Shown: in pieces, positions 1-20,000 of the stretch
Layout: each line of letters begins with the position of its first letter
How positions within the stretch are numbered: position 1 is the stretch's first letter
Source of the DNA: Atractiella rhizophila
Lineage: Eukaryota
Assembly: GCA_021432655.1 (NCBI GenBank)
Contig: MU271410.1
Coordinates: 50,500 to 70,499, forward strand
Reading direction: 5' to 3'
Length of the DNA stretch: 20,000 bases
Notes under the pieces: generated by a model
The model's input: the letters and a program-made list of their open reading frames with translations, nothing else
Database searches by the model: none
What the model was told of the DNA's origin: nothing
Position numbers and translations under genes: made by a program

Positions 1-1275
1 CAGGGCGTGCTTGAGTGACGCTACGTTGTTGACGCGATGGAGCTGGTGTCGTAGCCGCTGGCGCGGAGGATTTTGCGACTCGAGCAAGGTTTTTTGTGCC
101 TTGGCTACGCTTCAGAGATGATTTGCGGTGGATTATGACGTCGGGAAGAGGGAAAGGAAAGAAATTTGCGAATGGGGATTCTAAACTCGCGTCAATTTCT
201 CAACCTTGACCAAGGTAGACAGGATAGATATGACATACTTCGATTCGTGAAAGCTTCCTCGTAAGCTTCTTTGACATCTTCATCTTCAAACTTATCCCTC
301 TCTTCTTCTTTCTCGCTCGCATGAGAGAACGGTAACCAAGCCATACCCCTCCTGAAGATACCTTCTGGCAACCTGGGCACCTCTACATCTTGTAAGATCT
401 CCTCATACGCGATGCGCTCTTCTCTAGCATCTGTCTCCTCCTCCGTTTCCCTCCCAGGCATATGTTCTACATCCTCCTCGCCTCTCAACGCACGCTCCAT
501 AAATTCTCTCCTCGACTTCTGCTCTTCCGTCTCCTGAACACTTTCTTCCCCATTGAGATTGAGCAGACCTGGATCAAGAGGTGTGGAAAATCGGATCTTC
601 TTTCTCTTCCCTGGGGACGGAGTCTTAAGGCTGCCTGGAGAGAAGGCGGACTGTCGAGGAAGAAGAGCGGGAGGTGGCGGTGGTGCGAGAGGAGTAGTTG
701 ACTTCAACGACGATCTTTGCTTCTTCGCAGTGGTGTTGAGCGGCTTTGGGCGAAGAGCAGTACTAGGATTAGGCTTCCTACCAGTCTGAGGAGCAGGACC
801 GGGAGTCTTGGGGGGAGGCGATAACGCTGAGGGAAGAAAAGCAGTCAGATTCATCTCGCTTTCGCCGAAAGTAGGACAACACCAGAGACGTTTCCTTTTT
901 ATCGCGCCGAACACCGATATCAATCATCGGATAACGAAATAAGTCGGCTTTCATGCCCCCAAAATTTTCTGACAAGTCATGCAAGATCATGCAGCCCTTT
1001 CAAACATTACAAACCGCTACAAACCCCTCCAACACGTCTGAAAAACAAGAAAACGTACCTCTCTCTTTGCCTTTTACCCCTTTCACATTGACCGTGAGCA
1101 AAATCTTTTCCTTGCCCTCTTTCCCTTCATTCTGTTTCCCTGAATGCCCTGGGACGTCATTCAGGATGGCGCTTTTACCCGCGAGTTTTGGAAGGTGGGC
1201 AGACGATGGATTTTCCTTGTCTACGTGGATCCGACGGCGGGATTGAGCGTGTTCGATAGGTCGAGAGTGCAGCAT
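1..1275 (-). CDS. KEN-box, Pro/Ser/Thr-rich protein; candidate securin (Cut2/Pds1-like anaphase inhibitor). 3'-partial, continues past position 1
   Basis: Hand-spliced exons 1275-1059, 826-239 and 180-<1. Introns are 1058-827 (GTACGT...CTGAC...TCAG) and 238-181 (GTATGT...TTGAC...TTAG). Both keep the frame, which stays open to the window edge. The protein has VDKENP (KEN at 1218-1210), RSSL (RxxL), many SP/TP sites and EEDVEHMPG (473-456), which resembles the S. pombe Cut2 DIEYMP motif. The gene model is solid; the securin identity is inferred. Confidence 0.6.
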
Positions 1276-1713
1276 CCTGAGCAGGGCATCTATCGCCTCG
1301 GTGGTTGAAACCGAAAAGAAAACAAGCCCAAATTGATCACCTGACCACGAAGGGACAAATCCAAAACAACACAGAATTTCTGCAGCCACTTGTCGTCGAG
1401 AGGTATCTGGGCGGTACAGTACGTTGGAGGAGTGAGCAATACCTACCGATGAGAAGTTTGGGAGTAGCGTGTGTGCTCAATTTATATTTTCTGATTCAGG
1501 ATGTCGTGGATGTTCGTTGTCCGTTCCGACGCCTTCTGGGCTTCGTCAACTTCGTCCGTCTCTGCTCCGGCTCGTTCATTAGCCAACATTAGCCTTCTAA
1601 TTATGTGCTCTGGACTGGCATAATGGCGTTTTGACCTTCTGGAAGATGCGAAGAAGAAGCGATATGATTCTTTCCCTGAAAGGCATCAACAACGTCAAAC
1701 TGACTCTTGGTTT

Positions 1714-1753
1714 CCTAGCCAGACCACCCCCCTTTTTCGGAATCGTCGTGCAA
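1714..1753 (+). repeat. Left terminal inverted repeat
   Basis: CCTAGCCAGACCACCCCCCTTTTTCGGAATCGTCGTGCAA compared with the reverse complement of 7019-7058, CCTAGCTAGACCACCCCCTTTTTTCAGCATCATCCCGCAA: 7 mismatches, no gaps. Confidence 0.85.
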
Positions 1754-1833
1754 GTATCGGGGACGTACAAACCGTCCACAATTCCAACAATGTTCGCACC
1801 ACGAAAATATGTCCCTGCGATAATGGTTTCGTG

Positions 1834-2031
1834 GCGTTGGAGGGATATTCGGCGCTCGTTGTTGGAGCGTTTGAGGACGATTGCTGGAGGCTTGTGGACG
1901 CGTCGCGGAGACGTTGGACGGCCGTGGGAGGAGCGTTTGGGCGGTATTGGAGAACTATTTTGGATTGATTTGTGGACGGTTTGGTGGTCGTTTTCGAAGC
2001 GTTGCGGAGGCGTTGTTTCATGATTGTGTAA
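1834..2031 (+). repeat. Subterminal array of 18 degenerate units in strict 11-bp register (consensus about nCGTTGnGGAn)
   Basis: gcgttggaggg/atattcggcgc/tcgttgttgga/gcgtttgagga/cgattgctgga/ggcttgtggac/gcgtcgcggag/acgttggacgg/ccgtgggagga/gcgtttgggcg/gtattggagaa/ctattttggat/tgatttgtgga/cggtttggtgg/tcgttttcgaa/gcgttgcggag/gcgttgtttca/tgattgtgtaa. A 14-bp perfect inverted pair also links 1768-1781 to 1970-1983. Confidence 0.8.
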
Positions 2032-3266
2032 CGAGCGGTCTGCTGTCTGTTAAGCATTACAGTGTAATTGCAGCATCATCTTCAAAGTAGATCCCATGGT
2101 TCTTCACATGCAACTCATTGTGCAACCTCATACTATTGCATACATGATAAGGTACCACAGCCTTCGAGCCCCATCTCTTCCCCTCCTTCGCCGTCCAGCT
2201 TCATTCTTCCCATCCCCTTCCCCTGATCCTGATCGCTGATCGCTCGCTCCTACTCCTCTCCCCACTTGTTCGCCTTCGCCTTCACTCCTCACCTTCCCCC
2301 GTCCTCGTTCTTCCTCTCCCGTTCAAGTTGCACCATACGAAGTTCCCGTCTTTTGTCGCTTGATCTCGTACTCCTCATTGCTCATTGCGCTGCCTAAATA
2401 CAAACATGGTTAGTCGTTCTACAGATCAAGTCTCAGAATCTTCTCTCAAGGAGTTAGAGTCGGTTCTCTTCTTGGAAAACCAGGTAACCCCATTGAACGA
2501 GAAAGAGGCGAGCGAAATTGGTTGAGAAATTGATCTAGGTCCTCGTGTGGACTGAACCTAAGTCATTGATAAACAAGATTTTCAAACGGGTAACAAGTGG
2601 AAAGACTTAGCAGATCCATGAGAGAAAGTTCGTCGGGTGAGCGTGTCGTCCAGACGATCCGTCAAGATTAAATGAGCATTGAGAAGGACAGATGACGCGT
2701 GCCACTAACCATACAGAATGCAAAGTCAGAAGCTTGAGGAGGTCAGAGAGCGGGAAATAGTTCCAAAAATTGTAAGTCCTCAGTTCCAAGCTCTTAACTG
2801 GAAAGTGGCGCGTTTTCGGCAGCAGAACAGTTCTCCTGGATTCAATGTTGCTCAACGCAGTGAATTGACGCGACACTTGGACCCAAATCAATGCTCTGTC
2901 GAAGTCTGCACGCCACGCTAACGTAGGACCGAAAGACGCACTTTTTTTGCCCAATTCCACCTCCAATAACCAAAACAAAACATTCCCACATAACATAAGG
3001 ATTATCCCTCTCCCCATGGAAGTCGGACCGGAGTCGAAATACTCAAAATTGTCGGAAAAAAACGCGTCGAAAAATCAGGGGTCCAAAAGTGAAAAGCGCG
3101 TTCAAAGTGAAAAAAATCGTCTGTAAACCTACTCACCATATCCCTCAAGCAACAGAAGAAGTTTGACACGCGTAGGAAAGGCGATAGCTGAGGAATTGTT
3201 GAGTTTGTCGTTCGGTTCGTCGTCGTTTGAATGTGACATCATATCTCCGACCGCCTCCTTTCGCAG

Positions 3267-3707
3267 GCTTGTCAACTAGCGAGGGAGTCGACGAGGGAAT
3301 GCAGGCATCAGGTAAGTTTTTGCTATCTGCTTGCATGGGGTGGTTGAAGGAGAGTCCTAAACTTACTGTGGACCTGGATCTGTATGGTGACAGTCGTTCA
3401 TAAGTATGAAGGGACTCTCTGGATTTCACTTCGTCCATGCAAGCTTGTCCTAGTTTTGTTGAGATGTACTTCCTAGATTGATGGCAGAAGCGTTCGTGCT
3501 ATGCTTACACCGACACAGAAAGCTCAGTGGTCCTCGCTACACCGACAGCTCTCCATTTGGAGTTAAAAGCTTGCTGGAAGGGTACACGCTTCGGTGCTGC
3601 ACCTCTCCAGCTCTTTTTGCGACGGCTTCGACCACAACTTCGGAATTTCAAACGGCTTGAATACCTTGGAGAGGTTTCCGAGGGTGCAGTATACTTTGTA
3701 GTTCAAG
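3267..3707 (+). pseudogene. Spliced gene fragment, possibly from a protein-kinase-like N-lobe
   Basis: Splice signals are TTTCGCAG (ends 3266), GTAAGT (3312), ACACAG (ends 3518) and GTATGT (3708). The joined frame ends ...RNFKRLEYLGEVSEGAVYFVVQ, which loosely resembles a kinase Gly-rich loop. No continuation was found. Confidence 0.25.
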
Positions 3708-4187
3708 GTATGTATGCCATCGTGATTGAGGGATAATGGGCAATATTAGTTGCACGTCAATGGGTCGTTGCCATTGCAGCGTTCTTATGGGCCAATGGTT
3801 TGCAATGGACCGGTGATCCACGGTCAACTCCTCTGGTGCTAGCTCAAGTGCAATCCTAGGAGCAGCGGCACTGCACTGGGTGGAATACTGCTCTCAATTT
3901 CTTTGTATCCTTTTATTGTAACCTTGACTAATTTTTATGTTTACTTTGAAACAGCCTCCGCCTCTTTCTTCACATCGCTCTCTTCTCGGCTTGTTACGTT
4001 CGACACCATTCCTCTTCCTATCGGTCTGCGTACTCCATCCCTTGCCTTGCTGCTTATTCTCGCACATCATTACATAGTGGCAGCTGCCATGTCCTTGTCC
4101 TTGTCTTCCGCCCTTGCCGCCTACCGTTACCATCGAAAGCCAGCCACGGTAACACCTGTAATCACCTCCATCCTCGCAACCAAATCG

Positions 4188-4418
4188 CATGTTGCTGAGT
4201 TCTGGATCCGGGTGGTCAAGATTGCGGAAACTGTACAGAAGGAAACGGGAAAGAGCAAGTTGTTAAAGGACTTCTTGAAGACCACTGAAGGGAACGGAGA
4301 TGGCGCAAGGGTGATTAGGGAATTGAAGGAGGAAGTCGAGGCTTTCGCAACCTCTTTCCCGCTTCCTGGAATTCGTGTGAGTATGGTCTGGCTTCCTCGA
4401 GGGACTATTGTTGAACAT
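4188..4418 (+). pseudogene. C-terminal fragment of serine hydroxymethyltransferase (SHMT)
   Basis: HVAEFWIRVVKIAETVQKETGKSKLLKDFLKTTEGNGDGARVIRELKEEVEAFATSFPLPGI matches the eukaryotic SHMT C-terminal helices (VAxF...V.IA...QK..G.KLLKDF...L..EV..FA..FPLPG). The PLP-binding core is absent upstream. Confidence 0.75.
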
Positions 4419-4869
4419 AAGAATAGAATTCGTCCACTTTCACCAGACATGAGTAGAAGTAGTAGATGTCACCGTGGATTTCGTTCAAATGTAGAAAATT
4501 GTGGTTGCAAGGGTTTCAGTCGGTGTAGGAGTTGGATGAACAATGAAATGTCACCTGTTTGTATAGTAAGAACTTCAACGTTCTGCAAAAAAATGGCATT
4601 TGTGTTCTTGCCTATTTATTTACTGTGCGACATTCGTGAGCAGAAGTTTCGTTGAAGGGAGAGGATTGATTATTATGTTTGCAACCATTTGCAGCATGAG
4701 TAAGGTGTATGATACAGCTCCCGGAAGATGGGCGAACTATTAACGAATAAATATCCATCGAACGACGAAGAGCATGCTGCATTAAAGACATCTATGAAAC
4801 GTGCGTGAGAGTGGGGTTTAATCTATACCGTCAAAGTCAATTCAACGTACGCAGAGAGATAGTCGTGAC

Positions 4870-6250
4870 TTACATCTGACCCATTTTGTTTACTCGAACA
4901 GAGACTGACCATGCCCTCTCGTCTCCCATATCCACCCTGCTGCCCAAACCCTGCTCTACCACCGAATCCACCCTGTGCGTATCCTCTTTTCGCTCAATTT
5001 CCGTAACCCCGCGCTGCTGCCCGTCCCTGCTACCGTATCCACTGCCCTGTCCTCCAAAATCGCCTCCACGTCCAAATCCACTATTAGATCGAGACGAGCA
5101 TCCATTCGACGATCTTCCACCACCAGAACCACTCATGCCAAGCTTCTGCAAGAATGCGTGAGATAGCCCAGGTGCTTGCGCAGGTAATCCACGCCTCTAG
5201 CTGAAACATCTGAAGTGACGAAGACCTTGTACATTCCCTCCACGCTCTCTCTAAACATTCTCGCGACGCCAATCCGATTCTCCTGACTCTTCCTCGTAGA
5301 CGTGAGTTGACCTCGAAAACGGAAGATCTCTTCGCAGAGCCGCTGCGATCTGAGCAAATGTCTCTGTATACTTGGTGGTGGGCAAGAAGATGATTGCTTT
5401 TCTGCCTTTTGGGTTCTCGAGTTGATCCTGCGCAATGAGCCTCATGATGTGGGGGATGACATCGGTGGGAGAGTCTACGACGGTGGCGTATTGAGGAACA
5501 TGAGTGTGGGTTTTGTTCTCGTTTGACATAACAGTATTGATGAAGAGTGGTTTCGGGTTGAGAGCGGCGCGTGCGACCTCCTTGACCTCGTTCTCAAGGG
5601 TGGCGGAGAACATGAAAGTCTGTCTTTTCTGTTTCGGTGGCATCTTGAGCATGATTCGCTTGATCTCGTCCTTGAAACCCATACCCAACAACGTATCCGC
5701 CTCATCGAGAATCAATCGCTCAGACACCGCAACCGACGATTCCACCATGGGCTCGGTAATGAGGGGATCGTTCATTCGCCCAGGAGTAGCAACGACGATA
5801 TCCCTCCTTCCTGAAGTCTTTTGTTTGTACCTCCGACCAAAAGCTGTACCAGGAATCTAGGAAGATGAGAGCACAACTTGATAGCCTCGTTCGCAATTTG
5901 AGTCGCCAATTCCGTCGTGGGTGACAAATTGAGAGCTTCCGCGCTCGAGGAGAGAAATGACGGCCTCCTGAACGGGAGACATATGCTTGAAGGAGAAAAG
6001 AGCGGAGGTGAGAGCTTTGTACAACCCGGGATGGAGGGCAGACTCGACTGTCGAGCATTTTCGACCCTGTGGTGCGGCCTCAGTCTCTGGAGCAGAAGAC
6101 TCTTGTGCTTCCGACTCGGCTTCGGGAGCAATGGCGAAGGTGCGGTTGAAGGAAGTGAAGGAGAAAGCGAGAGGTTGGTGACGGGTAAGAGAGAAGGCGC
6201 TGGGAACTACATCGGTAGGGTGACGGTTGAGCGAAAGAGGGAGTGAAGGG
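4870..6250 (-). pseudogene. Mss116/CYT-19-like mitochondrial DEAD-box RNA helicase pseudogene
   Basis: Present: Q motif LHPGLYKALT...FKHMSPVQEAVISLL (~6035-5950), motif Ia SPTTELATQIANEA (~5924), Ib DIVVATPGR, DEAD (5706-5695), FSAT, IIFLPT, VTSDVSARGVDY (~5220-5185) and a Gly/Ser/Arg-rich tail. Motif I (Walker A) and motif VI are missing. There are several frameshifts, a stop at 5251, no start codon and no recognisable intron. Confidence 0.85.
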
Positions 6251-6783
6251 TTGGTGTCGTCGCGGATTCGAGGTGGAGGTCGGAAAGCGCCACGAAGCTA
6301 AGCTATGCTGTGCCCAATGCAGATTTAATAAAGAACAAACTGCTAGAACAGAAAAGGGCTTACAGCTACACATGGTGCTATTCTGCTTCATCCGAGGGGT
6401 GCTCATTTGGCTGCGAAAGTCCATTCATCGTCGCCGTTTCAAGTAATTTCGATTAGAATTCAAACTTTTACACCAAATTCAGCGTTTTCAATGAGGCGAG
6501 AGGAGGATGGAGGGTCTGGGTCTGGCCTACCAGGCAACCGTGGGAGAGGGAGGAGGAACAGTGCAGTTCCGCCCTGGGCTGCCAAAGAATTAGCAAACTG
6601 CAATAAATGAAAGGAACGGGAAGGGAACGCACACAAAATGGGTCTTAATAATAAAAAATTGATGAACCATGCTGCTTCATGCTGTCCTAGACCCAAACAC
6701 ACCTCAAGCATGGCCTTCCAACCACCATTCAACCGTTGCAGCAATGTTGACAGACAGTTGTCCATTATTGGAATGGTTCCGCA

Positions 6784-6930
6784 TTTCCCAATGATCCAGC
6801 GACGGTTGAGAAATGCAGTCCCAATGCTGTCAAAACCATTGGCAACGCCTCAAAATGCGGGGGCATTCGCAACGATTATGCAATGCGTCACCTACGATTT
6901 CAAAATGCGATGCCAATTGCTTCCCAACCA
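6784..6930 (-). repeat. Right subterminal array (reverse-complement units, mostly 11-bp register, CpG-decayed)
   Basis: AACG/AATG/AACC-type cores start at 6790, 6801, 6812, 6823, 6834, then 6844, 6854, then 6871, 6882, 6893, 6904, 6915, 6926. Many read AATG where the left array predicts AACG. Similar motifs extend over about 6660-7030. Confidence 0.7.
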
Positions 6931-7018
6931 CCAGCACTCAGGTCGGGATTTTTCAAGGTTGCAGGACCATTCTCAAGGTTGGCCTTGGAGACAATCATTA
7001 TGTGAGGGATGGCTATGA

Positions 7019-7058
7019 TTGCGGGATGATGCTGAAAAAAGGGGGTGGTCTAGCTAGG
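7019..7058 (-). repeat. Right terminal inverted repeat
   Basis: The reverse complement matches 1714-1753 at 33/40. It ends ...GGTGGTCTAGCTAGG followed by TT. Confidence 0.85.
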
Positions 7059-7529
7059 TTGTTTTCTTCGCGCCCTTGCATAGTTCTAGTAAGAGATCTC
7101 AAGTGATTCCCTTTTGCAAAGGTTGGGCATATTATTGACCTTTCGGTCCTAGCATGTTTCGTAACGTGACGGGCTGCTACAATCCTAAGGACCAATTCGA
7201 CTCCAACCTTTTCAGCCTGATGTTTGGTAGATCAGTGATAAACACTGTTGGAAGAAGCAGGGAAGAAACGAGAACCCAATGTTAGCATACGTATAAGTCT
7301 TTTGTGACAGTGTCAGGTTGGACGTCTGCAGCAGACTGAAAATCGTAGATATTCCGTGGTGGAGCGGCAACTCTTCCAGGCTTCAACCTTGAGCCCTCGA
7401 GTGCCACCGTGACGGAATATCAAGGAGAACGGTCACCGCTGTCAGCGGTTTGCACGTCAGCATGTAAATCTTTAAATCCCGTGGCCGCGAAGATAAAAGC
7501 CTGCTGATGGAGGCTGGTCCCTCAGAGAT

Positions 7530-8688
7530 ATGGCGCCGTTGAACAAAGCTCTTGTGTCCTCCTTTTGGAAAACTCTAGACAACACAACAGCAGTCTACAG
7601 GCAGACGATAGATCCCGATTGGGCGTTCGATTTTGGGAACGTTCCTCAAGGCGGCAAGTTACTTTGTGCTCTTCTGATCACCCATTAATGTTGTGTGGAA
7701 AAAGGTTACTTACTCGGCATTATTTTGAGCGCTACGATATCATTTATCAGTTCTCCTCCAGATGGCCTGGATTTCCTGCCTTCGAAAGACAAACACCCAG
7801 TTCACATAGTGGGTCATTATTTACGTCGCTCGGAGGTAGGGCAGGAAGTAGATATCGTCATCCGCATTGTTCAGACCTCGAAGACAATGCTATGGCTGAG
7901 CGGAGAGCTGTTTTGCAACGTGTGTATCCTCCCTGGAGCAATCGCCGAGCAAATGACAGGCCAAAGCGGTATAGGGAGCCCTTCAGATTGCATCCACTAG
8001 CATCTTTGGCCCTGCTCCATCCCTGTCCTCCTTGTCCATATCCGATCCAAGACCGCCGTATCCAACCATCTCACCCCCTTTCCCGTTCGGTGTCCATCCT
8101 CAGTCACATGTGGCGGAACAATTTGGAAAGCTGCCTTGGTATGGAAACTCAGGGACATTCAAGATTAAGGAGGTTCCAACTAAATATCTGTTGAAGAGCC
8201 TGACTGATGGGTCGGAATGGGGAGCCTTCGTAGAGTTGAGTGGAGACCAAGCCACGGTACAGTCCTTGCCGTAAGTTGTACCGTTCGCCTCTCGACAGAA
8301 TGTTCAAGGAAGGTATCAGGTTCTATGTGGATATATTTAAAAATGTCGGTCCCTTTCAGAATAACAAGCTGCTGGACGCTGAAAACTTATTTAGATGGTT
8401 GCTTTAATGACGCCAGGTCAACCACCATCATGGTATCCCACAATTACGCTCAGCATAGAGTTCAAGTTTCCCATTCCTGCTGATCCACTTCGACAACTAG
8501 CCATCTTTTCGAACGGGCGAGTAGCGGTAGAAGGCAGAGCTGATCATTCCGTAGAACTCTGGGCTGTTCCCGCTGAAGTTGATGTGGATGGAGAGGAGTG
8601 GAAGAAGAAGTGCTTTTGTCTTGCGATCGGGAGGCAGATTAGTTTGACACGGGTTCCAGAAAGGAATTGGGGAGGATCAAAGATTTGA
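7530..8688 (+). CDS. Thioesterase-like superfamily (double hotdog fold) protein
   Basis: Exons 7530-7653, 7705-7919, 7975-8270, 8320-8344 and 8395-8688 join in frame: MAPLNKALV...IDPDWAFDFGNVPQGGYLLGIIL...HPVHIVGHYL...LPFYVDIFKNM...SWYPTITLSIEFK...GRADHSVELW...LAIGRQISL. The W...P.GGY, P...D and W.PT.TL..EF motifs are typical of fungal thioesterase-family proteins. Confidence 0.85.
7654..7704 (+). other. GC-AG intron (intron 1 of the thioesterase gene)
   Basis: Donor GCAAGT, acceptor AAAG, 51 nt. Removal restores PQGGYLLG. Retention hits an in-frame TAA. Confidence 0.8.
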
Positions 8689-8863
8689 TGACATATTCCA
8701 TATTGGTACATGATTTATTCGGGTTCCTTTGTGCTCTGAAATTCGATAATGACCTTTCTCCGAGAGATGCCCTTCATCAGCATTGAAGAGAGTTACCCTC
8801 CCAACCTCCTAGCCTCCTGAAACCGTCATTCTGAATGGAACTGTCCAATTCAGGACTGCTGCC

Positions 8864-10377
8864 TTATTGATCGTCAGTCAACGTCACCGCAACTGAACCA
8901 CGCATGATTTCCCTTGCAGTTCTTTCCACCACGCTATGAGGAATTCCCCCTTCGTCTCTCAACGTTCCCTCAACAATTCCAGCTGGATGCGCCACGACGA
9001 CACTGCTTGCAGAGCTACCCGTCGTGGCTGAACCAGAGATGAGAGAAGGCAAAGATCCTTTATACTTTTGGGAGAGGACCAAATTGGCGAGCGTTGTACC
9101 AGGGATGGTGCGGTGGAAGTTGCCAACGCTTATGGCTCTGACAATGAGAGAAGGAGCGGGCTTATCCGCACCGAGCGTCGATCCATCTGTGAACTTGATG
9201 GGATGCTTAGGGTTGACGCGGTCGAGCAAGACAATTTTTGGTCCTGCAGATGTCATCGGGATATGATACTACAGCGATAAGAGCCTGTTAGCGGATTGTG
9301 ACTAGGGTAGGAGCCACCCACAGTTTGGCAGATTTCTTTGCGGATACCTTCAAGTATTTGATGTAGCTCTGGTGTGGAATCCAGTTCAGCTGGCTGAAGG
9401 ATTTGCAGAGGGGGAACCGAATTCTTTGTCTGGTATATGTCAATCAAGTGGCCTATTTCTTGCCAGTCAAGGAAGATGTTCGCAAGTCCGGCATCGATGA
9501 CTGAGAACTTAAACTGTTTGACAATATCAAAACATCTCTGCAACAAGAAACTGAAAGACCTTATCATTCAGAGTATCCAACTCTCTGGATGTGACCAGCC
9601 CCATCGTCTTCTCAGCTGCTGCCTTTGCGCTCTTCAAAGGGGTCCAACACTGGATCCTAGTCCCTTTTCCAGGAACTCCGGCAATGTGAGTAGTCCAAAA
9701 ATGGTCTTCACCTGAAGAACCAGGGAGATAGACATTCCCAGATGCATGATCAATGGGAACCTGGCAAGTAAATATGGTACCGATGCCAGCTGCAAGGATG
9801 CGAATACTTTGAGTGGAAATGGCTGCATCTTCAGATTCAGTTGGTTGGACAATCCCATGGTTGACTGCGGCATGTGCAACTGCTGAGAGCATGTTTCCAC
9901 AGGTTCCAGACCTTGGAATGAATCAGTTCTGTTGCAGCCAAGCAATGAACAAGATCAAACCAATCCAAATTGTCATTCCTTACTCCAACCTGACAGAAGC
10001 TAGGTACAAAAGATGAGGTTGCATCTTTGTCACGGGCTAGAGTGTGCTCACCGATATACGACGTCCCATCCGTTCTCCCCTTTTGCCCGTTGCACGTCAT
10101 CGGCCCATTCCACACCTTCTAACCTTCCATACTTCCTCATACTGTCCAAACCTTCTCCCGGGGCGCTGATAACGCACGCCTTACTAAGAGAGCTTACTCC
10201 ACCTCCAAGGCCATCAATCTGGCGACCATTCGGGTCTGGAGATCCAAGACTTTGAAGCAGAACTTGGGCACGAGCGGACGGCCGCAAGGATGCGAGATGG
10301 GAGGCACGGAAAATGAGACCGCGGCTTGTTCCACCGCGGTAGAAGAAAGCTGGGATATGGTGGAGTGAAGCGACCAT
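8864..10377 (-). CDS. PrpF-family protein (2-methylaconitate/aconitate isomerase-like, DAP-epimerase fold)
   Basis: Exons 10377-10052, 9999-9961, 9911-9560, 9513-9322 and 9268-8864. Motifs are YRGGTSRGLIF, GSPDPNGRQIDGLGGGVSSLSK, LDWSGTCGNMLSAV (family CGN Cys), IAGVPGKG, IDAG, RAISVGNFHRTIPGT, HPAG and RTAREIMRG. Confidence 0.92.
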
Positions 10378-11566
10378 TTCAATATTCGCTCAATCGTGTG
10401 AAGATGCAGCCTCCTCCTTCCCCACCTTTCAATCTGGGTCTTCTTTCATTAATGCACTTTGACCAGGCTTATTAGTCACCCTCGTCACTAAAGTTTAAAG
10501 TCATGTGATTCCACCCAGCTCTTTGTGATAACGCTTTCCGATATAGAATATTGGATTATGTGTGCATGGCAACAGAAGGGATATAGGCCACCGTATAGAG
10601 TCAGACACTTCGAGGAAGTCAGAATGCGGCAAGCCCAGTATTGATCGCAATTGAAAAATGAAAATCGAAATACAAATCTGCCATGTGGATTCGCTTAGAG
10701 CTCAGAGAGCAAAAAAGAAAAACTCTTTTGAAGCAAGCAATGTCAAGTGATGAACGAATATCTATCAACAAAATCGAGGAAATGGAAATGCAGAGAGTAG
10801 ATACAGGATGGTGGATTGACACTAAAAATGGCCCGTCTCTGAATACCATCAACGGGAGAATTGCATTGTATCCATGTAGGAATCAGAGTCACCATTAGCT
10901 TCCGCACTGATCAGAACTACTTGATCATATACGGCAGATAGCATTCGTCTTGCAGATACCTTTTGTCGCGGAGGAGGCCCCGAGGAGGTATCACTCATCA
11001 CTGGAGAAGCCATTTGCACAATTTGGCGGACCTCCCTCCCGTATTTTCCCTCTTCAGCTCCGAAAAAGACATGCGCACCAATACTCGGCCGCAAAAATGC
11101 ACATCCAGCATTAACACTCCCTCGTTATTCTAAGACGCCTTCCAGCCAAATTAGGCTTATTCTCCCCATTAATCGCAATCTCATCAGTTTCACTGGAACA
11201 GATCAGCAACTCCTTCACGTTTCCCTCAGTAAAGAGCCTAGAGGTTTAACGTCGGTATTTCTTGCTAAGGCATACTGAAACCGTCGATCTTGCAGTCGGA
11301 GAGGCAGGAGAGCAATAGCTTGCCCATGACATGGTTATTTAAAGGACGTAGAATACCGACTTCACGCATGGCTGGAAGAAACTGCGATTATGAGAGGGAG
11401 CAGAACATGGAGGCTTACGAAAGTGAGACCCTGACCCTAAGTCACGCAGACATTGACTAGTTAAGCGAGCAATCTGAAGCATTGGTGCACAGGTGTGTTA
11501 CGGATTAGGTATATCAACTAGGCGTCCCTAGTATAGAAGTATGCTTTTGATGATTGTTCAAATAAA

Positions 11567-13808
11567 TTAGTAAGCTGCTCCCCTTCCAGCTGCTTTCCTT
11601 GGATCAGCGACAGCAGTGAACGTGCCATCCTGTTCAGATGACAATCAGGTCCCCCAAGTAACTGCGATGGAGGAAGAGTGCCCTTACCCAATCTCTCGTG
11701 ATGACATGGCTCGTGCTACCCTGATCGTCAGTGTACGAGATATTATGTCCTCTCCCCTTCAAGAATTCAACAGTAGCATTGTTGAATCCCGCAATACGGG
11801 GTGTTTTCCATTCCACCTGTGCCCCTGCTCTTCAATATCCTCGAAGACAGACAGAAGGAGGAAAGACAACATACATAAGTGACGTTCCCGAGCTGATCGT
11901 GCCACCTTGGCTCGTGAGCGCTTTCCCAAGCATCCTTACCCCAATCCACGAACTGGCTGATATGCTCCAGGTTCGCAGTAATGATCCTGCTTCCTCCAGC
12001 TGCGCCAGTAATATATTGCAAGGTCCCAGTTTGAAGATCCTCCACCATGCTCGCACTGATGGAACTTTGGGGTCTCTTTCCTGGACGGATGTAGTTCGCT
12101 GGAGAAGCAGCGTAGCCGAATGCGTTCGTTTGTCCCGGACTCTGTAACGGCATTCAGCGTGTTGCAAGCGAGAGAAGCGGGGAGCTGGGCAGAAGAGAGA
12201 CATACGGAGAAATCGTCCATTTCATCGTTCAAGATAATACCATCGTCAGTCATGACTTGACTACCCCAATAAAGGTTCACAGTGGTAGTGAGAGTGACGG
12301 CGAGGCCGCTGTCGTCCACGGTTGCAATGTGGGAGGTCCCATGATCGTCAAGTACGACGTTGTTGTCTGGGTTCTGCCTCACATCTTCATAAATATGGAT
12401 CAATAACAGGATTGAACCGCGCACATAGTAAACAGCAGGATGGCTCGTATTGTCAATCCTGACCCTGGCAGCTTCATAAACAGCCGGGGTAAGACTTTGC
12501 CTGCCCATCATCAGCATTAGCCCTTCGCTCCAATGTTGAGAAAAGAAGCAGACAACACACTTTTCTAACCACGACACATTCTTCGTGAACGCGGGATCTC
12601 CATACTCCGTCCTCTGGGCATATCCCCATCTATCAGCCTCAATAATCCGATGAGTGCTCTCATTCCATCCCAGCTTTTTAGGTTCAAATCCCTCGAATAT
12701 TTTGAGGGCACTCAGCACCACCGTACCACTGCTGGGTGCGATGGTGGAAGTGACCTTATGACCGCGATAGCTGATTTGGGCGGGAGAACGCTCGATAGCT
12801 GTGTAGGATTGGAGGTCGGAGAGTTGGATTATCCCGGAACGGTTTCCAGCAGCTTTGCGAGGGAGTCAGGAATGACCGATTCAGGGGAAGAAAGACAAAC
12901 CATAGACGATGTTTTCCGCAATGCTAGAGTGGTAGAAGTATGACGGGCCGTTGTTTGCTATTCTGTTGCCTCCCACGATTAAGCTGAGAAGGAACATATG
13001 AGAAGAGACACACCTCTCTAACGTGTCCGCCAAACGGTGTCGATAACAGGTGTCCCCTTCCTTCAGTAGTGTCCCATTAGGAGCGAAAGATTCAGCCCAT
13101 AGTGTATCGTTGAGCAAGAACGGGTAAGTATCTATTCTCTCATCAATGCGGCGGAGAGGTAGGTCGTGATTAAAGACATACTGGCATTCAAAGCATTTGC
13201 CAAATCCACATGGACCTTAAACCCTCCCCTTGCCAATTCGACGACAGGAGTAACGATTTCCTTCCACGACAGCTTGCCAAAGCGTCCATGCAACTTCTCC
13301 CATCCCCTCATCTCTCCTGGCACTCCTACAGCCAATCCTCCGACCGTCGAAGGCTTCGGAATGGTTGAGTTGAGATACATAGTCTCATTTCCTAGAGCAG
13401 GCATGGTCTCTCGGAAGTCGAAGGATGTATACTCGTGGCTCCAAGACGTGATTTGGCCCGTGGATGAGTAGTGTGCCTTCGGATAGCGGACCAGCATGAA
13501 TCCACCACCGCCGATGCCGGAGTGGTAGGAAGCGGTCACTCCCACGCAAAGAGAAGTGGTTATGGCCTACAATCCGTTTGAAATCTGCACAGGAGGGGAA
13601 AAAGACAGCATACGGCGTCAGCTGCGTTTCCACCCTTTTTGAGAATGCCTACTCCGAGCTCGCTGCACACTGACACTTCCGAGACTGCTGCTCCCCGACT
13701 TCCTTTCGCCTCGCCATCACGGAGAGGATGGGAAGAGTTGCGAGGTAGGAGGGGAGAGGCAGCCGTCAGTTGGACGAGGGGAAGGAGGGAGATGAGTGGG
13801 AGGAACAT
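11567..13808 (-). CDS. Gamma-glutamyltranspeptidase (secreted or membrane-targeted, 10 exons)
   Basis: Signal-peptide-like MFLPLISLLPLVQLTAA, then GGNAADA, SGIGGGGFML, DFRETMP, VGVPGEMRG, catalytic Thr in DHGTSHIATVD, LTTTVNLYWGS, GIILNDEMDDFS, PGKRPQSS, GAAGGSRI, PRWHDQL and ADPRK...AAY*. Nine GT-AG introns join in frame. Confidence 0.95.
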
Positions 13809-14679
13809 CTCTCGAAGCAATCCGTGAATGGATAACGACTCGGAAAGGCGAGCGCAGGAAGAACGTCCTCCCTTTTGAGCAGAGGAATTTCGATTTCTTG
13901 AGAGATAGATAAGACGCAGCTATATATGTCTATATATACTCCGAGCCTAGAGCCCTCGCATCACGATGCTAGTGCGAGATCTGAGTAACTTCATCCGAGC
14001 GAGCACGAGTGCAGCGCTGATGATGAAGAGAAGATCAAGAATTGTGTGAGATTACACCACCCGTTTCATTTCAAGTTCAGTCCCACGCGAAGAAGAGCTT
14101 TTCATAGCGCCTCTGCGACCCTCCGAGTCCGCCCTTCCTTTCACAGACATGGCGAGTTTGGATTTACTGTTCCGCCGACACCTTTGCATGCCGCTTTCGT
14201 AACTCAACAGCGCAGTCATAAAGGAAACAATGAAGAAGAAAGAGAATACTGGCTAGTGAGGAAACTTGTGTGGCAGCAGATTCGCAATTACATCACGTGG
14301 CCAAATCTCTCTGGTTCGGACAAGTTGATGTGCGCCAGTCGGAACTCTCAAATCGACCTCTTCTGGCATCACAAAACACAGCAACCATAACAGAACGAAG
14401 GGTAGAACTAGATTCCTAGCATTTGCTGATAGAGCAGTAGAGACCTGACTTGAAGGTAGGAAAGATGGTACGAAGTGACAGGGAAACGAGAGAGACGAGT
14501 GGTGCGTATCTTCCCTCTGTGCTGGGCTTTGTCCAGGTCGCGTCTTTGGATTTTGGTTGGAATGGATGTGCTTGAATTTTTATCCCGAAATGGAGTGTAG
14601 GGAGCCTTACTTTTGTACCTCATGCAGTAGAGCTACCCTGACGCTTTCACGATGGACGAGTTGATGGTGTTGACGACGC

Positions 14680-17600
14680 ATGCAGTCTTGCAATGCGGTT
14701 GGCGCACCCATGTACTTGCATCATTTTACGAACATATGTAATCAATCCCAGTCCATCATCGATATCAAAGTGACAACCCTGATTGACGCCCCACCTTTAT
14801 CCATAGGCCTAATAACATCAATCAACGCCCGATCCGCCGCTACCTTCCCCTCCAGTTCTGCTTCCACCTCTCTCTCAGCCGCGGAAAGTCCCTATCCTTC
14901 TTCTGCCTCCACTCTCCAGGACGGTTCGCCACGAAGGAAGATTTTGCTCAAGCTCCCTGAGAAGCATGGCAATGGGAATGGAAAGCGAGGACGGCGAGAG
15001 GAGTCTCTTGGGGTGGGAGAGGACTATGTGGATCCCATGCTGGAGGTCGCGACGAAGGTGGGATGGGGAAAGGGGGGTGTTGCTACTACTTCTCAACGTG
15101 ATGAGGGCAGCGGAAAGAGGGAGGAGCGGCCGAAGAAGAAACTTCGGAGGGCTGTGGAGGAAGAGGAGGAAGTGCCGTCTAGCGAGGAGGTGGTGGAGGT
15201 TGCCAGGAATGGGAAGGGAAAGAAGAAGGAGGTCAGTTCGCCTATCATCCTCACATCCCCTCCAAACACCTCCGCGTCTCGCCGCTCCTCCCTCGACAGC
15301 GATATGATCGATCTCGATCCGCAGTCGGCCGCTCAATCGATTGCACGGAGTGCTGCACGAGTGAAGATCAAGCACGGAGTCATCCACTCAGATGAGGAAG
15401 GGCATGGAGAAAAGAGTAGCCCCGTCCAGCAGAGGAAGTCTGCCAAGATCAAATTGAAGCGGACTGCAAAGACTGTCGTCAATTCGTCAGATGTTGAGAT
15501 GGACGATGGAGAGCAAGTCTCCTCCTCATCTGGAAAGCAAACGAACGGACGCAACGTGATGAACCTCGATACCCCTTCTGCATCTTCCAAGAACAAGCGT
15601 AAAGCTTCCCCAGTCAATCTCGACTCTTCCCCGGCCGTCACATTGACGCGGCGTCCCTATCTCCGCACCAACGAGAGTGCAGCATCGTCTACGAGTTCCT
15701 TAGGACTAACGAAGGAGGTGGCATCGATACAACTGAGCGAGAAGGACAGAGAGAAGAAGTTCCTCGACGATCTTATGGATCTCCGGCTCTCAGGTTCGGA
15801 ACTGAAACAGCTGAGGGCAGAGTTTGGAACCGATGCTGGGAGAGCGAGGGAGGCTGTGATGGAGAAGAGGGGGAGAGACAGGGTGATTTCTGCTGCTCCA
15901 CCTCCATCACAACCCCCAGCCAAAAATCATATTGTCAAGACATCGAAGCCTCCGCCACTACAAAAGAAGTTGGAACCTAAGAGAACGGAACATACGAATA
16001 AAGGGAAGAAGAGGAAGATCGAGGACAACAATGATGAGGACGAGGAGGAAGCGGTATTCTCTGGTGGAGATAGCGATAGTGAATTTGAAGGCGGGAAAGA
16101 GCAAGAAGGGTTGAGCTCGGGCGAAATCCTCAAGTTTTTCAACGAGTGTACACCAGAGCAGTTACCGGAAGTTACAGGTCAGTTATTTCTACCTGCTCTG
16201 TTGAACCCTTCCTGAGATGTTGCTACACGTAGCTTGTACACTGGAGCAAGCAGAAGTCGTTGTTTCGATGCGGCCGTTTGAGTCTGTATCGGAACTCGAA
16301 ACTAGGCTAAGAAAGACAAAAGGGATCCCCAACAGCCTTGTCGACAACTTTCGTCTCATCAACTCCTCCTATCGAGAAACAGATCGGCTGCTTGAAACAT
16401 GCGAAAAGGAGGGAGAGGAGCTGTCAAGGATCATGGCGGTCTGGACGCGGAACTCAAGACACTCTGAAGCTGGCCACAAAGAAGATGGTCTGGATCTCAC
16501 GGAGATCTCGAATGTTTGTCAGGGAGAAGGGGAGTTCAAAGGGTTCCTCGAATCACAGCCCAAGGATCTAGCTGAAGGCTTTGTCCTGAAGAACTATCAA
16601 ATGTTGGGGCTCAACTGGCTCAACCTGCTGTATAGTCGCAGGACATCTTGCATTCTGGCTGACGAAATGGGCAAGTTTGCTTTCTACCAAAATGACCACT
16701 CTAATAGCACATCTTTAGGTCTCGGCAAGACAGCACAAGTCATAGCACTTCTAACACACCTAAAAGCGATCAAAGAACCCGGCCCACACCTCATCATCGT
16801 ACCTTCCAGCACACTCGACAACTGGCTACGAGAATTTTCACGATTCTCGCCCAGTCTTAACGTCCACTCGTACTACGGCACTCAAGCTGAAAGGGCCAGT
16901 CAACGGAGCGAACTCAAGCGTGCTACCGATCTTGATGTTGTTGTAACCGTGCGTTTGTCACTATTATTCATTTTTTATCCCTCATGGCCGAATCATAGAC
17001 GTACAACATTGCCACTGGCCACACGGACGACCGCAAGTTCTTGGGTAAGAAGATGGGTTTCCAGGTGAGTTTATGCATTCGATTCCTCCAATTTGGAAAG
17101 GTAATGGCGTGGGCTGCATAGGTCTGCATCTACGATGAAGGCCACATGCTAAAGAATAACGAATCAAAGAAGTACAAGGAGCTAATGCAAATACGGGTTT
17201 CATGGCGCCTGCTCCTGACAGGCACTCCGTTGCAGAACAATCTGCAGGAACTCGTGGTCCGTGTCAAATAAGTCGCCTTGTGTGTATCAACTGATGGAGA
17301 TGCATTCGAATGCAGTCCCTTCTCAGTTTCATCATGCCTCACATTTTCGATAAGGATGCCGCAGAGAGTCTCCGCGCCATCTTTAAGGTACCTCCGGAAG
17401 CTCAAGTAAACTTTTCACGAGAGCGCATCACTCGAGCTAAGAAGATGATGACTCCTTGTACGGTGCCCTTTCGGTTTTGGCACCCGCGCTGATGGTCAAT
17501 TTCCAGTTGTCTTGCGGCGAAAAAAGTTTCAGGTTCTCAAAGATCTCCCTCAAAAGTTGGAACGCATCGAATACTGCGAGCTCACAGACATGCAGCGCCA

Positions 17601-18772
17601 AGTCTATCGAGAAACTATGGTATGTGTTGTGCTCATTTCATAGTTCGAAAACTCACGACGAGCAAAGCTTCGATCGAAAAAGACTCTATTGGGTGCCGCC
17701 GACATTAACAAACTCGCAGGGGAAGAATCGAGTGAAGAGGTCAAGAAGAACACAAAGACTACGAAGACTGGCAGGAAGACGACAAATAACTCCTCCGCCA
17801 ATGTGCTGATGGAACTTCGCAAGGCAGCGAATCACCCGATGCTCTTTCGAAAGCTTTACTCTGATGCAAAGGTTCGAGAAATCAGCAAATCATGTCTAAT
17901 GGAGCCAGATTTCATGGACTCTGAGCTCGAACACATTGTCGAAGAGCTCGAGCTGTACACGGACTACGAGCTCCATCGAATATGTGCCACTCGACACTCA
18001 TTGCAGAAGTACAAGCTCCCGAACGAGCCATGGATGCAGGGAGGAAAGATCGATGTTCTCCGGCAACTGATACCTGAGCTGAAAGAAAAAGGAGACCGTA
18101 TTCTCCTTTTCTCACAGTTTACGAGCGTCCTTGATATCCTCGAGGCTGTCCTCGATACGATGCAAATTCGATACCTCAAACTCACTGGTCAAACGACAGT
18201 TTCAGATAGGCAGGGTCTCGTCGATACCTTCACAGAGGACAAGGACATCACAGTCTTCCTTCTCTCAACTCGAGCAGGAGGCTTGGGACTGAATTTGATG
18301 GCAGCTAACACAGGTATACCCCTTCCTCTTCCTTTCTCTCACATCGTCTAATCAGAGTTGCGCTCCAGTCATCATTCACGACCAAGACTTCAACCCTCAT
18401 AACGATCGACAAGCGGAAGATCGAGCATTCCGTCTGGGTCAAACAAGGGATGTGACTGTGATCCGTTTAATCAGTCGGGGTACGATCGAAGAGGATATCT
18501 ACAAAATAGCTCAATCAAAGCTCAAGTTGGATGAGTCGGTTTCTTCAGCTTCTAAGGACAACCAGAGCTTGATCTCCGGCGCTGGAATGACACAAACGAC
18601 CGGCCAAGTCGAAAAGGTCGAGAATACGGTTACTCTTGGTGAGGGAGATCAGGCGCTGTTCGAGAAGAGGATGAAGACTAGCCTGCTGAGGAATTTACAA
18701 GCTAGGTTTCAAGAGGAGGCCGGCGCGGAAACAGGAACAAAAGATGACGTCGTCAAATCAAAATATTTCTAG
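14680..18772 (+). CDS. Fun30/Fft3/SMARCAD1-subfamily Snf2 chromatin remodeller; true start unresolved and may lie as far up as ~14149
   Basis: A long charged, disordered N-terminus precedes [100 protein letters not shown] and [19 protein letters not shown]. Eight introns between 16178 and 18368 join in frame. Confidence 0.9.
16671..16718 (+). other. GC-AG intron splitting helicase motif I (Walker A) of the Fun30-like gene
   Basis: ATG G|GCAAGT...CTAAT...TTTAG|GT CTC GGC AAG ACA, 48 nt. Removal restores DEMGLGKT. Confidence 0.88.
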
Positions 18773-18931
18773 ACCTACCACCCTGCAATTGTGTATAGTC
18801 CTTCACTTTGACGTGCTAAATAACTACCGTTATATTGGAATAATATCTAGAGCATTCCGTCTTTTCTCAAGTTGCAAGGTAAAGCAGGCCAGCAGGTGCA
18901 GAGAACGATAAATTAAGCTATGCTCATCTAT

Positions 18932-20000
18932 CTAAGGCTTCGGCGCCACCTTTTCCTCGACCTTTTCATCCAATTTATCTTTGGCCTCTGCTCCCTTGCC
19001 TTTCACCCCTTCCACAATAGCAAGTGCTGTCTTCTCCGCCTCATTTTCCAGCTTCTTCACTTCTCCCAGCGCTTTCTGCGCCATCTCGCTGTCCTTCACT
19101 TTCTCAATTTTCTCCCTTGCTTCATCAACCAAGGAACCCAGTTTCAAACCTGTCCTCTTCTCTCCCTCCTGCACCGCAGAACGTGTCAATTCTTTCGCCT
19201 TGCCTTGCAATCCCTGAACCCATTGCAGATTATTCCGCCCCCATTCGGTAGTCGAATGAATGTACTGTTGCCGTGTTTTATGGAAATCAGGAAAGCGTGA
19301 AGACTCGTGGTGGTTGTAGTAGGAACGGATGGATTGAGAGGTTTTGGGCAAGAAGTAGACGGAGGAACCGACGAGGAAGGTAGGAGGGAGAAGTAGGCGG
19401 ATGGGAAATGAACGACCTCGCGCAACTAGAGAACCGGCGAGAAAGGAGACGCCAACACTGGTAGCAATTAGGATGTTCCTGCTATTCAGACAATAAAAGC
19501 TCACTAGAGTATCCCAGGCGTTAACTTCTCGTCTTTAGGGAGAACACGGTGGACCTCGTCTACGAACAGTGACGGTCAGTTCAGTTCAAACTACGTTTTG
19601 GACTGGAAGGAACGCTGCCTGCTTTCCACCAACTTAAAAACTACAACTTGCATCATCAGCGGATTCCGCTGAGAGCAGTTGATGCCGTATTGAATCTACA
19701 ACCAAAACAGAGCACAATACTTGTGTCAAGCTCACAGCGAGGAAGACAAAACAAGCTAAGCAGGCCGAAGCATTGCTCGAGGCTTTTGCCCAATCTTCTC
19801 AGAGAGACAAACATACCCTCAACACCCCTCTCCCACCTAATCCACCTGTCAGTCAACCCTCTTGCCTGCTCAGTCGCCTGCTTATAATAATCCTGCACTA
19901 GAAGTCGTGTATCTCTTATCTGGTTTTGCAATGGCAGTTGCTCCTGCACCAACAGCTTTGGAGGTTCCGGTTTGGAGTAAAGAGTGGAATTGTGGTCGCT
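18932..20000 (-). CDS. MICOS subunit Mic26/Mic27 (apolipoprotein O family); 5'-partial
   Basis: Exons >20000-19817, 19559-19505 and 19457-18932 give ...LQNQIRDTR...RWIRWERGVEDEVHRVLPKDEKLTPGILYVGVSFLAGSLVARGRSFPIRLLLPPTFLVGSSVYFLPKTSQSI..., the fungal ApoO/Mic26 pattern (PG.LY..V..LAGS..AR.R...R...P...Y.LPKT), followed by a coiled-coil tail. Confidence 0.85.

Follow-up and report, generated by a model that had tools for sequence, protein, structure and literature searches.

Within a 20,000-nucleotide (nt) stretch of the genome of Atractiella rhizophila (assembly GCA_021432655.1, contig MU271410.1, positions 50,500 to 70,499 of the forward strand; hereafter the window, in whose own numbering all positions are given), positions 1714-7058 form a transposon unit of 5345 nt, and this element is a genuine DNA transposon of the non-autonomous kind that has moved recently. 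An earlier note, made from the letters alone, had proposed that a single composite element here picked up pieces of host genes and moved, and this proposal is now strongly supported by an empty site with a single TT in another strain: very probably the unit is one composite, transposase-less element, which captured host gene pieces and was moved as a whole. Functionally it is a Pack-type ("transduplicating") non-autonomous terminal inverted repeat (TIR) DNA transposon, and all four marks by which we recognize that class were found in it, i.e., inverted termini with a target duplication, the lack of a transposase, fragments of host genes, and other copies together with an insertion polymorphism.

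The empty site, the termini and recent movement

Parts of window positions 1-10000 were recovered in four public sequencing runs (X1 to X4), the contigs of which were aligned to positions 1-9000 at 80% likeness. X1 and X2 derive from one sample (S1), and their contigs show scattered differences from the window in the flanks (e.g., 8 letters in 711), so they represent another strain. In that strain the element is missing. A 360-nt contig of X2 joins 1456-1711 straight to 7059-7162, with 3 and 0 differing letters on the two sides, at a depth of 202.7 that equals the depth of the flanks covered by a single contig (198-203), and X1 has a contig with the same 1711/7059 joint (depth 178.4), the shorter side of which is just 28 nt long. 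Such a site, with the flanks joined by one TT, had been predicted in the earlier note. That note had also named relatives carrying the interior without the termini as an arrangement that would speak against a single unit; the X1/X2 strain lacks both together. Since the element is missing at exactly 1711/7059 in a related strain, it has moved recently.

The joint also fixes the size of the target duplication. The empty site skips 5347 nt, which is the 5345-nt element plus 2 nt, the two letters fitting either side, and it reads GGTTTG where the window reads GGTTT-element-TTG. An empty site with a single TT means that the target duplication is 2 base pairs (bp), TT. A 3-bp duplication (TTT / TTG) was ruled out by the empty site, and its letters also differ between the two sides. 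Basidiomycete elements of the hAT7 and Kyakuja groups make 7-bp duplications; a 7-bp duplication here (TTGGTTT / TTGTTTT, 6/7) was likewise ruled out, as the empty site retains both copies and 5347 nt are skipped instead of 5352.

At some places in the left flank (837-889 and 1201-1257) sample S1 shows two alleles at ~40-60% of the depth each, one of them window-like, so that two haplotypes seem to be present in it, whether as a dikaryon, a diploid or a mixture. Despite the two alleles, the X2 empty-site contig stands at full flank depth.

The two ends of the unit belong together. Its arms of 40 nt each are imperfect, being 83% complementary (33/40), yet they are the longest among the 120 inverted pairs of the window, and the terminal sequences read CCTAGC..GCTAGG. 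The outer 18-mer, with one Y allowed, has exactly two sites in the window, one per end and inverted, against a chance expectation of 0.02, and two or more matches were seen in 0/200 shuffles. At position 7023 most other X1/X2 copies have an A, which is the letter of the left arm. Inside the arms, the motif GCRTT lies five times on the plus strand at the left end (1714-2040) and six times on the minus strand at the right end (6700-7058), 11 occurrences where the remainder of the window predicts 1.19 (P ~5e-8, a value that is too favourable as the motif was picked post hoc). The arrays face inward; in the reverse orientation the left end has 0 occurrences and the right end 2. Successive spacings are 33, 66, 66, and 11 nt on the left and 11, 21, 10, 28, and 22 nt on the right; being mostly multiples of ~11 nt, they make "phased" a fair word, and the arrays are presumed to be transposase-binding sites. 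The left-end motif GCGTTG appears as GCATTG at the right end, and the observed/expected CpG ratio is 1.48 at the left and 0.60 at the right, indicating that the ends are the same kind of sequence in unlike states of decay. The inverted termini at 33/40, the TT beside both ends (1712-1713 and 7059-7060), the phased subterminal arrays at both ends, and the unequal CpG decay had all been read from the letters beforehand, and all were borne out by the inverted-pair search, the sequence with its empty site, the oriented motif counts, and the CpG ratios.

Captured genes in the interior

No transposase family was found by Pfam among the 118 open reading frames (ORFs) of at least 70 amino acids (aa) in the whole window, the sole family inside the element being DEAD (5254-5856 on the minus strand, E 1.2e-15, and 5775-6206 on the minus strand, E 0.0011). 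A second pass at E up to 1 covered 80 ORFs inside the element (71/72 of those of 30-69 aa touching it, plus 9 larger ones) and yielded sub-threshold noise and a weak Helicase_C match (E 0.017) at 5136-5441 on the minus strand, with no transposase. An interior free of intact genes and of transposase, as the letters had suggested, thus holds over the 198 ORFs searched. The SHMT and DEAD-box helicase pieces that the earlier note had recognized were both confirmed, and the possible third source that it mentioned is indicated by RNA-like contigs only. Those contigs come from X3 and X4, which skip intron-sized GT..AG or CT..AC stretches in both the flanking genes and the cargo and hence behave like RNA assemblies. 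X3, with a share of 0.14 and a depth of 2-6, was used just as a second RNA-like witness for splicing and for the longer helicase version. The two runs are labelled "DNA?" (X3) and "?" (X4).

The SHMT piece is the better traced of the two. Positions 4191-4373 correspond to the final 61 codons of the next-to-last exon of SHMT (parent residues 408-468) and are followed by an intron-like stretch (4375-4429) and by the last exon, with a stop codon TAG at 4454-4456 and then the 3' untranslated region to the parental poly(A) site, the match over that exon being weak (7/9). The same 61 codons match the C-terminus of solved SHMT structures (PDB, E 1.8e-7) and are identical at 58/61 residues to P0121, a full-length 478-aa protein annotated as "glycine hydroxymethyltransferase [Atractiella rhizophila]" on a 125-kb contig. 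Contigs of X4 continue upstream of 4197 as MKEKDMEKVA (read by hand), i.e., the residues of P0121 just before the breakpoint; they also show a joint 4374>4430 that skips 4375-4429, loose ends at 4197 and 4591, and A-runs near 4616. As the cargo retains the intron that X4 skips, the piece is genomic DNA that begins at codon 408 and extends as far as the poly(A) site.

The second piece had been described as a fragment of an Mss116-like helicase; the helicase is right, while the small fragment proved to be a nearly complete dead copy. Its nearest solved structures are Has1 and Mss116 (E ~2e-18). It retains a 51-nt intron at 4823-4873 (GTAAGT..AG on the minus strand) that both X3 and X4 skip, and its reading frame shifts three or more times. 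At 5929/5957 it lacks a run of 59 codons, motif I among them, that is still present in another family copy (P0001, below) and at loose ends at 5933-5936; motif VI also seems to be absent from it. A further 11 nt are missing after 5292. These are present in X4 (958.6/958.6 of the depth) and in one X2 contig (231.5/784.1), and with them restored the frame reads ..THVYEIHSRKSQENR.. straight to the C-terminal helicase domain (by-eye reading). The presence of the 11 nt together with the open frame means that a less damaged, expressed helicase version exists, presumably the parent, which we infer from contigs alone. A search with the helicase returned P0001, itself another dead copy, P0129 (the window's own gene model), and relatives at no more than 54% identity. 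As to the parental loci, then, the SHMT parent P0121 was found intact on another contig, whereas an annotated intact helicase parent was not, its less damaged version being seen in contigs. The window copy and P0001 have frameshifts in common, which indicates that loss of helicase function came before the spread of the family. Toward the right, variant contigs part from the window at 6353, 6389, and 6491, and the right edge of the cargo therefore probably lies within 6298-6699.

The left half of the interior is less easily named. Segment 3424-4190 is spliced in RNA-like fashion in X4 (3309>3475 and 3705>3953, GT..AG) and is matched by X3 contigs at 3475-3699 and 3724-4018; neither it nor 2040-3260 gave a protein identity or a Pfam match. 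Matching spliced RNA-like contigs of two runs and no protein, it points to a third, unnamed source. Farther left, the summed X4 depth reaches 18848 in the bin 2101-2400, and 27129 from 12 contigs at 2299; this stretch, whose closing ATG is followed by an intron start, could have been captured from the 5' end of a gene with very high expression, or the depth could reflect cross-matching among CT-rich leaders. The third source and the SHMT tail meet in a chimeric open frame, the first 34 codons of which have no protein match (the non-SHMT part of a 97-aa query). Coordinates of all features are collected in Table 1.

Table 1. Features of the element and its insertion site, in window positions
Feature	Positions	Strand	Evidence or remark
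Left copy of the 2-bp target-site duplication TT	1712..1713	.	Sequence and empty-site contig
Left terminal inverted repeat	1714..1753	+	Starts CCTAGCCAGACC; inverted-pair match 33/40
Left subterminal region	1754..2040	+	5 GCRTT motifs (1834-2014); CpG observed/expected 1.48
CT-rich leader-like stretch	2150..2410	+	Ends in ATG then GTTAGT; sequence, X4 depth
Segment common to another family copy	3264..3423	+	First two exons of P0122; P0122 alignment
Replacement segment, putative third source	3424..4190	+	RNA-like contigs; stands where the P0122 copy has SHMT residues 188-407
Chimeric open frame, 188 codons	4089..4655	+	Predicted ORF from ATG 4089: 34 unrelated codons, SHMT tail (408-468), retained-intron readthrough
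SHMT fragment	4191..4616	+	58/61 to P0121; PDB SHMT match; X4 contigs
Dead DEAD-box (Mss116/Has1-like) helicase copy	~4649..6297 (at least to 6297)	-	Pfam, structures, P0001, contigs
Helicase upstream region, common to the P0001 copy	6298..6699	-	P0001 residues 1-51 match 6670-6463
Right subterminal region	6700..7018	-	6 GCRTT motifs on the minus strand (6812-6908); CpG observed/expected 0.60
Right terminal inverted repeat	7019..7058	-	Pairs with the left arm, 33/40
Right copy of the 2-bp target-site duplication TT	7059..7060	.	Sequence and empty-site contig

Other copies, rival explanations and the route of capture

Two annotated proteins of A. rhizophila reveal further copies. P0001, a 467-aa model on a 54-kb contig, shows 91% identity to a 201-aa helicase query and matches 6670-5254 of the minus strand at 88.6-93.5%, including the non-helicase upstream sequence, and it has the same premature stop. 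In P0122, a 223-aa model on a 198-kb contig, the first two exons are small and match the element-specific 3264-3423 (residues 2-17 against 3264-3311, 14/16; residues 17-27 against 3391-3423, 9/11), and SHMT residues 188-236 and 315-478 follow. As gene models inside copies on other contigs, they show that the family is multi-copy and that cargo is carried along. The window's own gene model, P0129 (143 aa, 100% identical, on a 70.5-kb contig), is likewise a pseudogene piece; P0001 and P0122 are named after the captured genes ("DEAD-domain-containing protein" and "PLP-dependent transferase", respectively), and all three models look like annotation artefacts of captured gene fragments.

Contigs of the sequencing runs also bear on the family. 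Up to 11 contigs cover one place inside the element in X1 (at 2817) and up to 12 in X4, compared with 1-2 in the flanks, and over the arms X1 has 7-8 contigs on the right (7023) and 4 on the left (1783). Variant joints (1942>2229 with 294 other letters between, and 6538>6949) and loose ends (2092, 6353, 6389, and 6491) indicate family members with other interiors. A contig joining 1729 to 2301 (12 other letters) was not counted as a family member, one of its sides being just 16 nt. Beyond this genome, a metagenome scan with a 25-nt degenerate terminus gave 0 matches, and a scan for P0001 relatives confirmed 11 of 600 candidate stretches as ordinary distant helicases at 29-42% identity, none of the 11 with an SHMT neighbour and none with the element terminus.

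Several other readings of the locus have to be weighed. Two separate short elements, or ends gained at different times, might bracket a duplicated chromosomal segment that moved by "macro-transposition" on the outer ends of two neighbours, the unit then being no single element of long standing, and the strong CpG difference between the ends (1.48 vs 0.60) as well as the contig variants that link either arm to other interiors (2092, 6353, and 6491; 1942>2229 and 6538>6949) would suit such a history. We nevertheless hold it to be unlikely: both ends have the same terminus and the same oriented motif, the whole unit has one duplication and one clean empty site, the P0001 and P0122 copies have the same cargo beside the same element-specific sequence, and no inner termini are present, the 18-mer occurring just twice in the window. 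An autonomous element, with an unrecognised or very divergent transposase split by many introns in its left half (2040-4190), is more improbable still. It would account for the ~2.1 kb of interior that has no named source and for the spliced plus-strand transcripts there in RNA-like contigs, but that half contains no ORF longer than 155 aa and no Pfam match above noise, the non-SHMT part of the 97-aa query found no protein, and part of the region replaces SHMT sequence of another copy, which makes it cargo rather than core.

One could also do without a transposon, supposing that a segment of pseudogene DNA was inserted as filler of a double-strand break and has its inverted ends by coincidence, or that the other strain underwent a deletion between TT microhomologies; the duplication, at just 2 bp within a T run, is weak evidence alone and leaves room for this. 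Against it, the breakpoints of presence and absence coincide to the base with the 40-nt inverted repeat, which chance does not give, both ends bear oriented motif arrays, and the sequence is multi-copy on different contigs, so that such accounts have very little probability. Some Helitron- and Helentron-like elements insert at TT. That the unit is a rolling-circle element of that kind has equally little to recommend it: gene capture by Helitrons has been published in Pleurotus (PMC4289320; this paper and those cited below are drawn on through excerpts), yet the inverted termini here are long and, like the subterminal arrays, symmetrical, and the occupied site is two T longer than the empty site, which marks a duplication rather than simple insertion between two T.

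The composite, transposase-less element thus remains our preferred explanation, and we acknowledge the following points that weigh against it or against parts of it. The empty site is known from one strain, and X1 and X2, coming from one sample, make it one independent witness. The summed contig depth of X1, 1200-3400 in the bins wholly inside the element (1801-6900) vs ~270-400 in the flanks, is not a copy number. No intact parental helicase was found among the annotated proteins of 353-2000 aa or of 110-352 aa, and X1, unlike X2, shows the 11-nt version of the helicase at 0/1074 of the depth. Uptake of the two cargo genes as a single block is no more than a probable reading, and the superfamily and the target preference would each be judged from a single insertion.

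How the cargo was acquired can be outlined tentatively. A transposase from an autonomous relative elsewhere would bind the termini and the phased GCRTT motifs, excise the element, and insert it at a target cleaved with a stagger of 2 nt. SHMT and helicase were probably acquired jointly, in a single block, from two convergent genes; the likely occasion is the repair of an excision gap with template switching, which is a proposed capture route for Pack elements, and later internal deletions and replacements would have given the window copy. The SHMT mRNA end (~4616) and the helicase mRNA end (~4649) lie ~30 nt apart, tail to tail, as in a compact convergent pair, and a single capture is therefore simpler than two captures that both stopped at transcript ends. 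The two genes were probably captured as a single block on this spacing, so that of the two "unrelated" gene pieces described beforehand, the two pieces stand and "unrelated" probably does not, the most likely origin being one convergent pair.

A broader proposal, possible but on balance doubtful, is that the element belongs to an undescribed and currently active lineage of Atractiellomycetes with 2-bp duplications, CCTAG..CTAGG termini, and phased GCRTT sites, which repeatedly captures and reshuffles intron-containing host DNA, has mobilised a convergent pair of SHMT and mitochondrial-type DEAD-box helicase genes, and has copies that are transcribed and spliced into chimeric frames, the 188-codon frame with a new N-terminus before the SHMT tail being one example. 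If true, this would provide a fungal system in which Pack-type gene shuffling and its effects on parent genes can be watched between strains.

Genomic setting and comparison with known systems

The element was inserted in a short spacer between two divergent genes. The left gene, on the minus strand, is represented by RNA-like contigs spliced at 180>239 and 826>1059 (CT..AC; introns 181-238 and 827-1058) that reach at least 1327, and the right gene, on the plus strand, is acyl-CoA-thioesterase-like, with weak Pfam matches at 7689-8685 and a spliced contig at 7975-8270/8395-8744. Without the element the two would lie a few hundred bases apart, and the insertion hence splits a probable shared promoter region. 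Farther right, Pfam matches mark what look like ordinary intron-split genes for a PrpF-family isomerase (8867-10389, minus strand) and a gamma-glutamyltranspeptidase (GGT; 11770-13566, minus strand), followed by a SNF2-family helicase (14674-18348, plus strand) and an ApoO/MIC26-like protein (18935-19534, minus strand); among these right-hand neighbours (8867-19534) no further transposon-like feature was noticed. The surroundings had been described as intact, tightly packed genes. Genes are indeed there, as far as Pfam pieces and spliced RNA-like contigs show.

Gene capture by cut-and-paste elements has been much studied in plants and reported in animals, and the fungal precedents that we found in print are a histone H3 borne by hAT elements of ascomycetes and capture by Helitrons in Pleurotus. 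Our search of the open-access literature brought up neither a Pack-type element with inverted repeats from a basidiomycete nor any work on transposons of Atractiella. An exact empty site, at least two more annotated copies with differing cargo, and a known parent gene could together allow the capture to be dated, the decay of the cargo to be followed, and the transposase to be found. For annotation, the consequence is that no fewer than three models (P0001, P0122, and P0129) have been called on pseudogene sequence within elements of this sort.

The superfamily is harder to settle than the functional class. "CACTA/EnSpm-like", as the element was first labelled, is not shown, as its termini are CCTAG..CTAGG rather than CACTA/CACTG and its duplication is 2 bp rather than 3 bp; of the traits of strict plant-type CACTA/EnSpm elements, it has the subterminal repeat arrays and neither the CACTA/CACTG termini nor the 3-bp duplication, and the 7-bp duplication of hAT7 and Kyakuja is also lacking. 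The CACTA-Mirage-Chapaev (CMC) clade, in which an autonomous partner would carry a Transposase_21-type DDE transposase and the same termini, is a reasonable candidate even though its listed termini do not fit, a placement that we consider distinctly likelier to prove wrong than right. Duplications in the wider CMCT clade (CMC with Transib, including Plavaka and TRC) are 2-5 bp, a range that includes the 2 bp seen here, and comprise PlavakaA (2 bp, with TGT..ACA), PlavakaB (2-3 bp, with CATCA..TGATG), and EnSpm families of Puccinia (3 bp, with CAC..GTG) (PMC12730594, in excerpt). Non-plant TRC elements of the CACTA superfamily, from Schistosoma, Tribolium, and Aedes, have 2-bp direct repeats and termini starting CC(C), that of Tribolium starting CCCTAG (PMC1636069), and CMC elements are reported to be expanded in Pucciniomycotina (PMC5751038). 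The window element thus resembles TRC, PlavakaA, and PlavakaB in its 2-bp duplication and TRC in its CC-initial termini, and differs from the clade, which in fungi has EnSpm, Plavaka, and ESTA lineages, in that its termini are not CACTA/CACTG, CA..TG, TGT..ACA, or CATCA..TGATG; the likeness to the Tribolium TRC terminus extends over only a few bases and should be taken as a lead rather than as a test.

Among gene-capturing transposons, the closest parallels, as far as the cited excerpts describe them, are the Pack-type non-autonomous TIR elements, namely Pack-MULE and Pack-CACTA in plants (PMC6379663, PMC8903248) and Pack-TIRs in metazoans (PMC8277862). Like them, the window element is without a transposase, has inverted termini and a target duplication, holds intron-retaining fragments of several host loci, gives rise to open frames and transcripts that are chimeric, and has several copies that differ in their cargo. 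Unlike them, it lives in a basidiomycete (Pucciniomycotina), has CCTAG..CTAGG termini with a 2-bp duplication, carries one cargo item that is nearly a whole gene instead of a small piece of exon, and is still polymorphic as an insertion between strains. In fungi, "transduplication" is known from hAT elements with histone H3 in Pyrenophora tritici-repentis and Pseudocercospora fijiensis (PMC6710886, PMC3538342), the captured copies of which are mostly dead, as here. Those elements, however, are from ascomycetes, make an 8-bp duplication, have termini of 18-20 nt, keep transposase domains, and carry a captured transcript (retrocopy), according to the portion of the account cited (PMC6710886), whereas the window element keeps introns, makes a 2-bp duplication, and has no transposase. 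Gene-capturing Helitrons, whose captured genes are expressed, occur in Pleurotus ostreatus and other fungi (PMC4289320) and share with the present element the capture of genes in a basidiomycete; they are rolling-circle elements without inverted termini and without a target duplication, and the window element has both.

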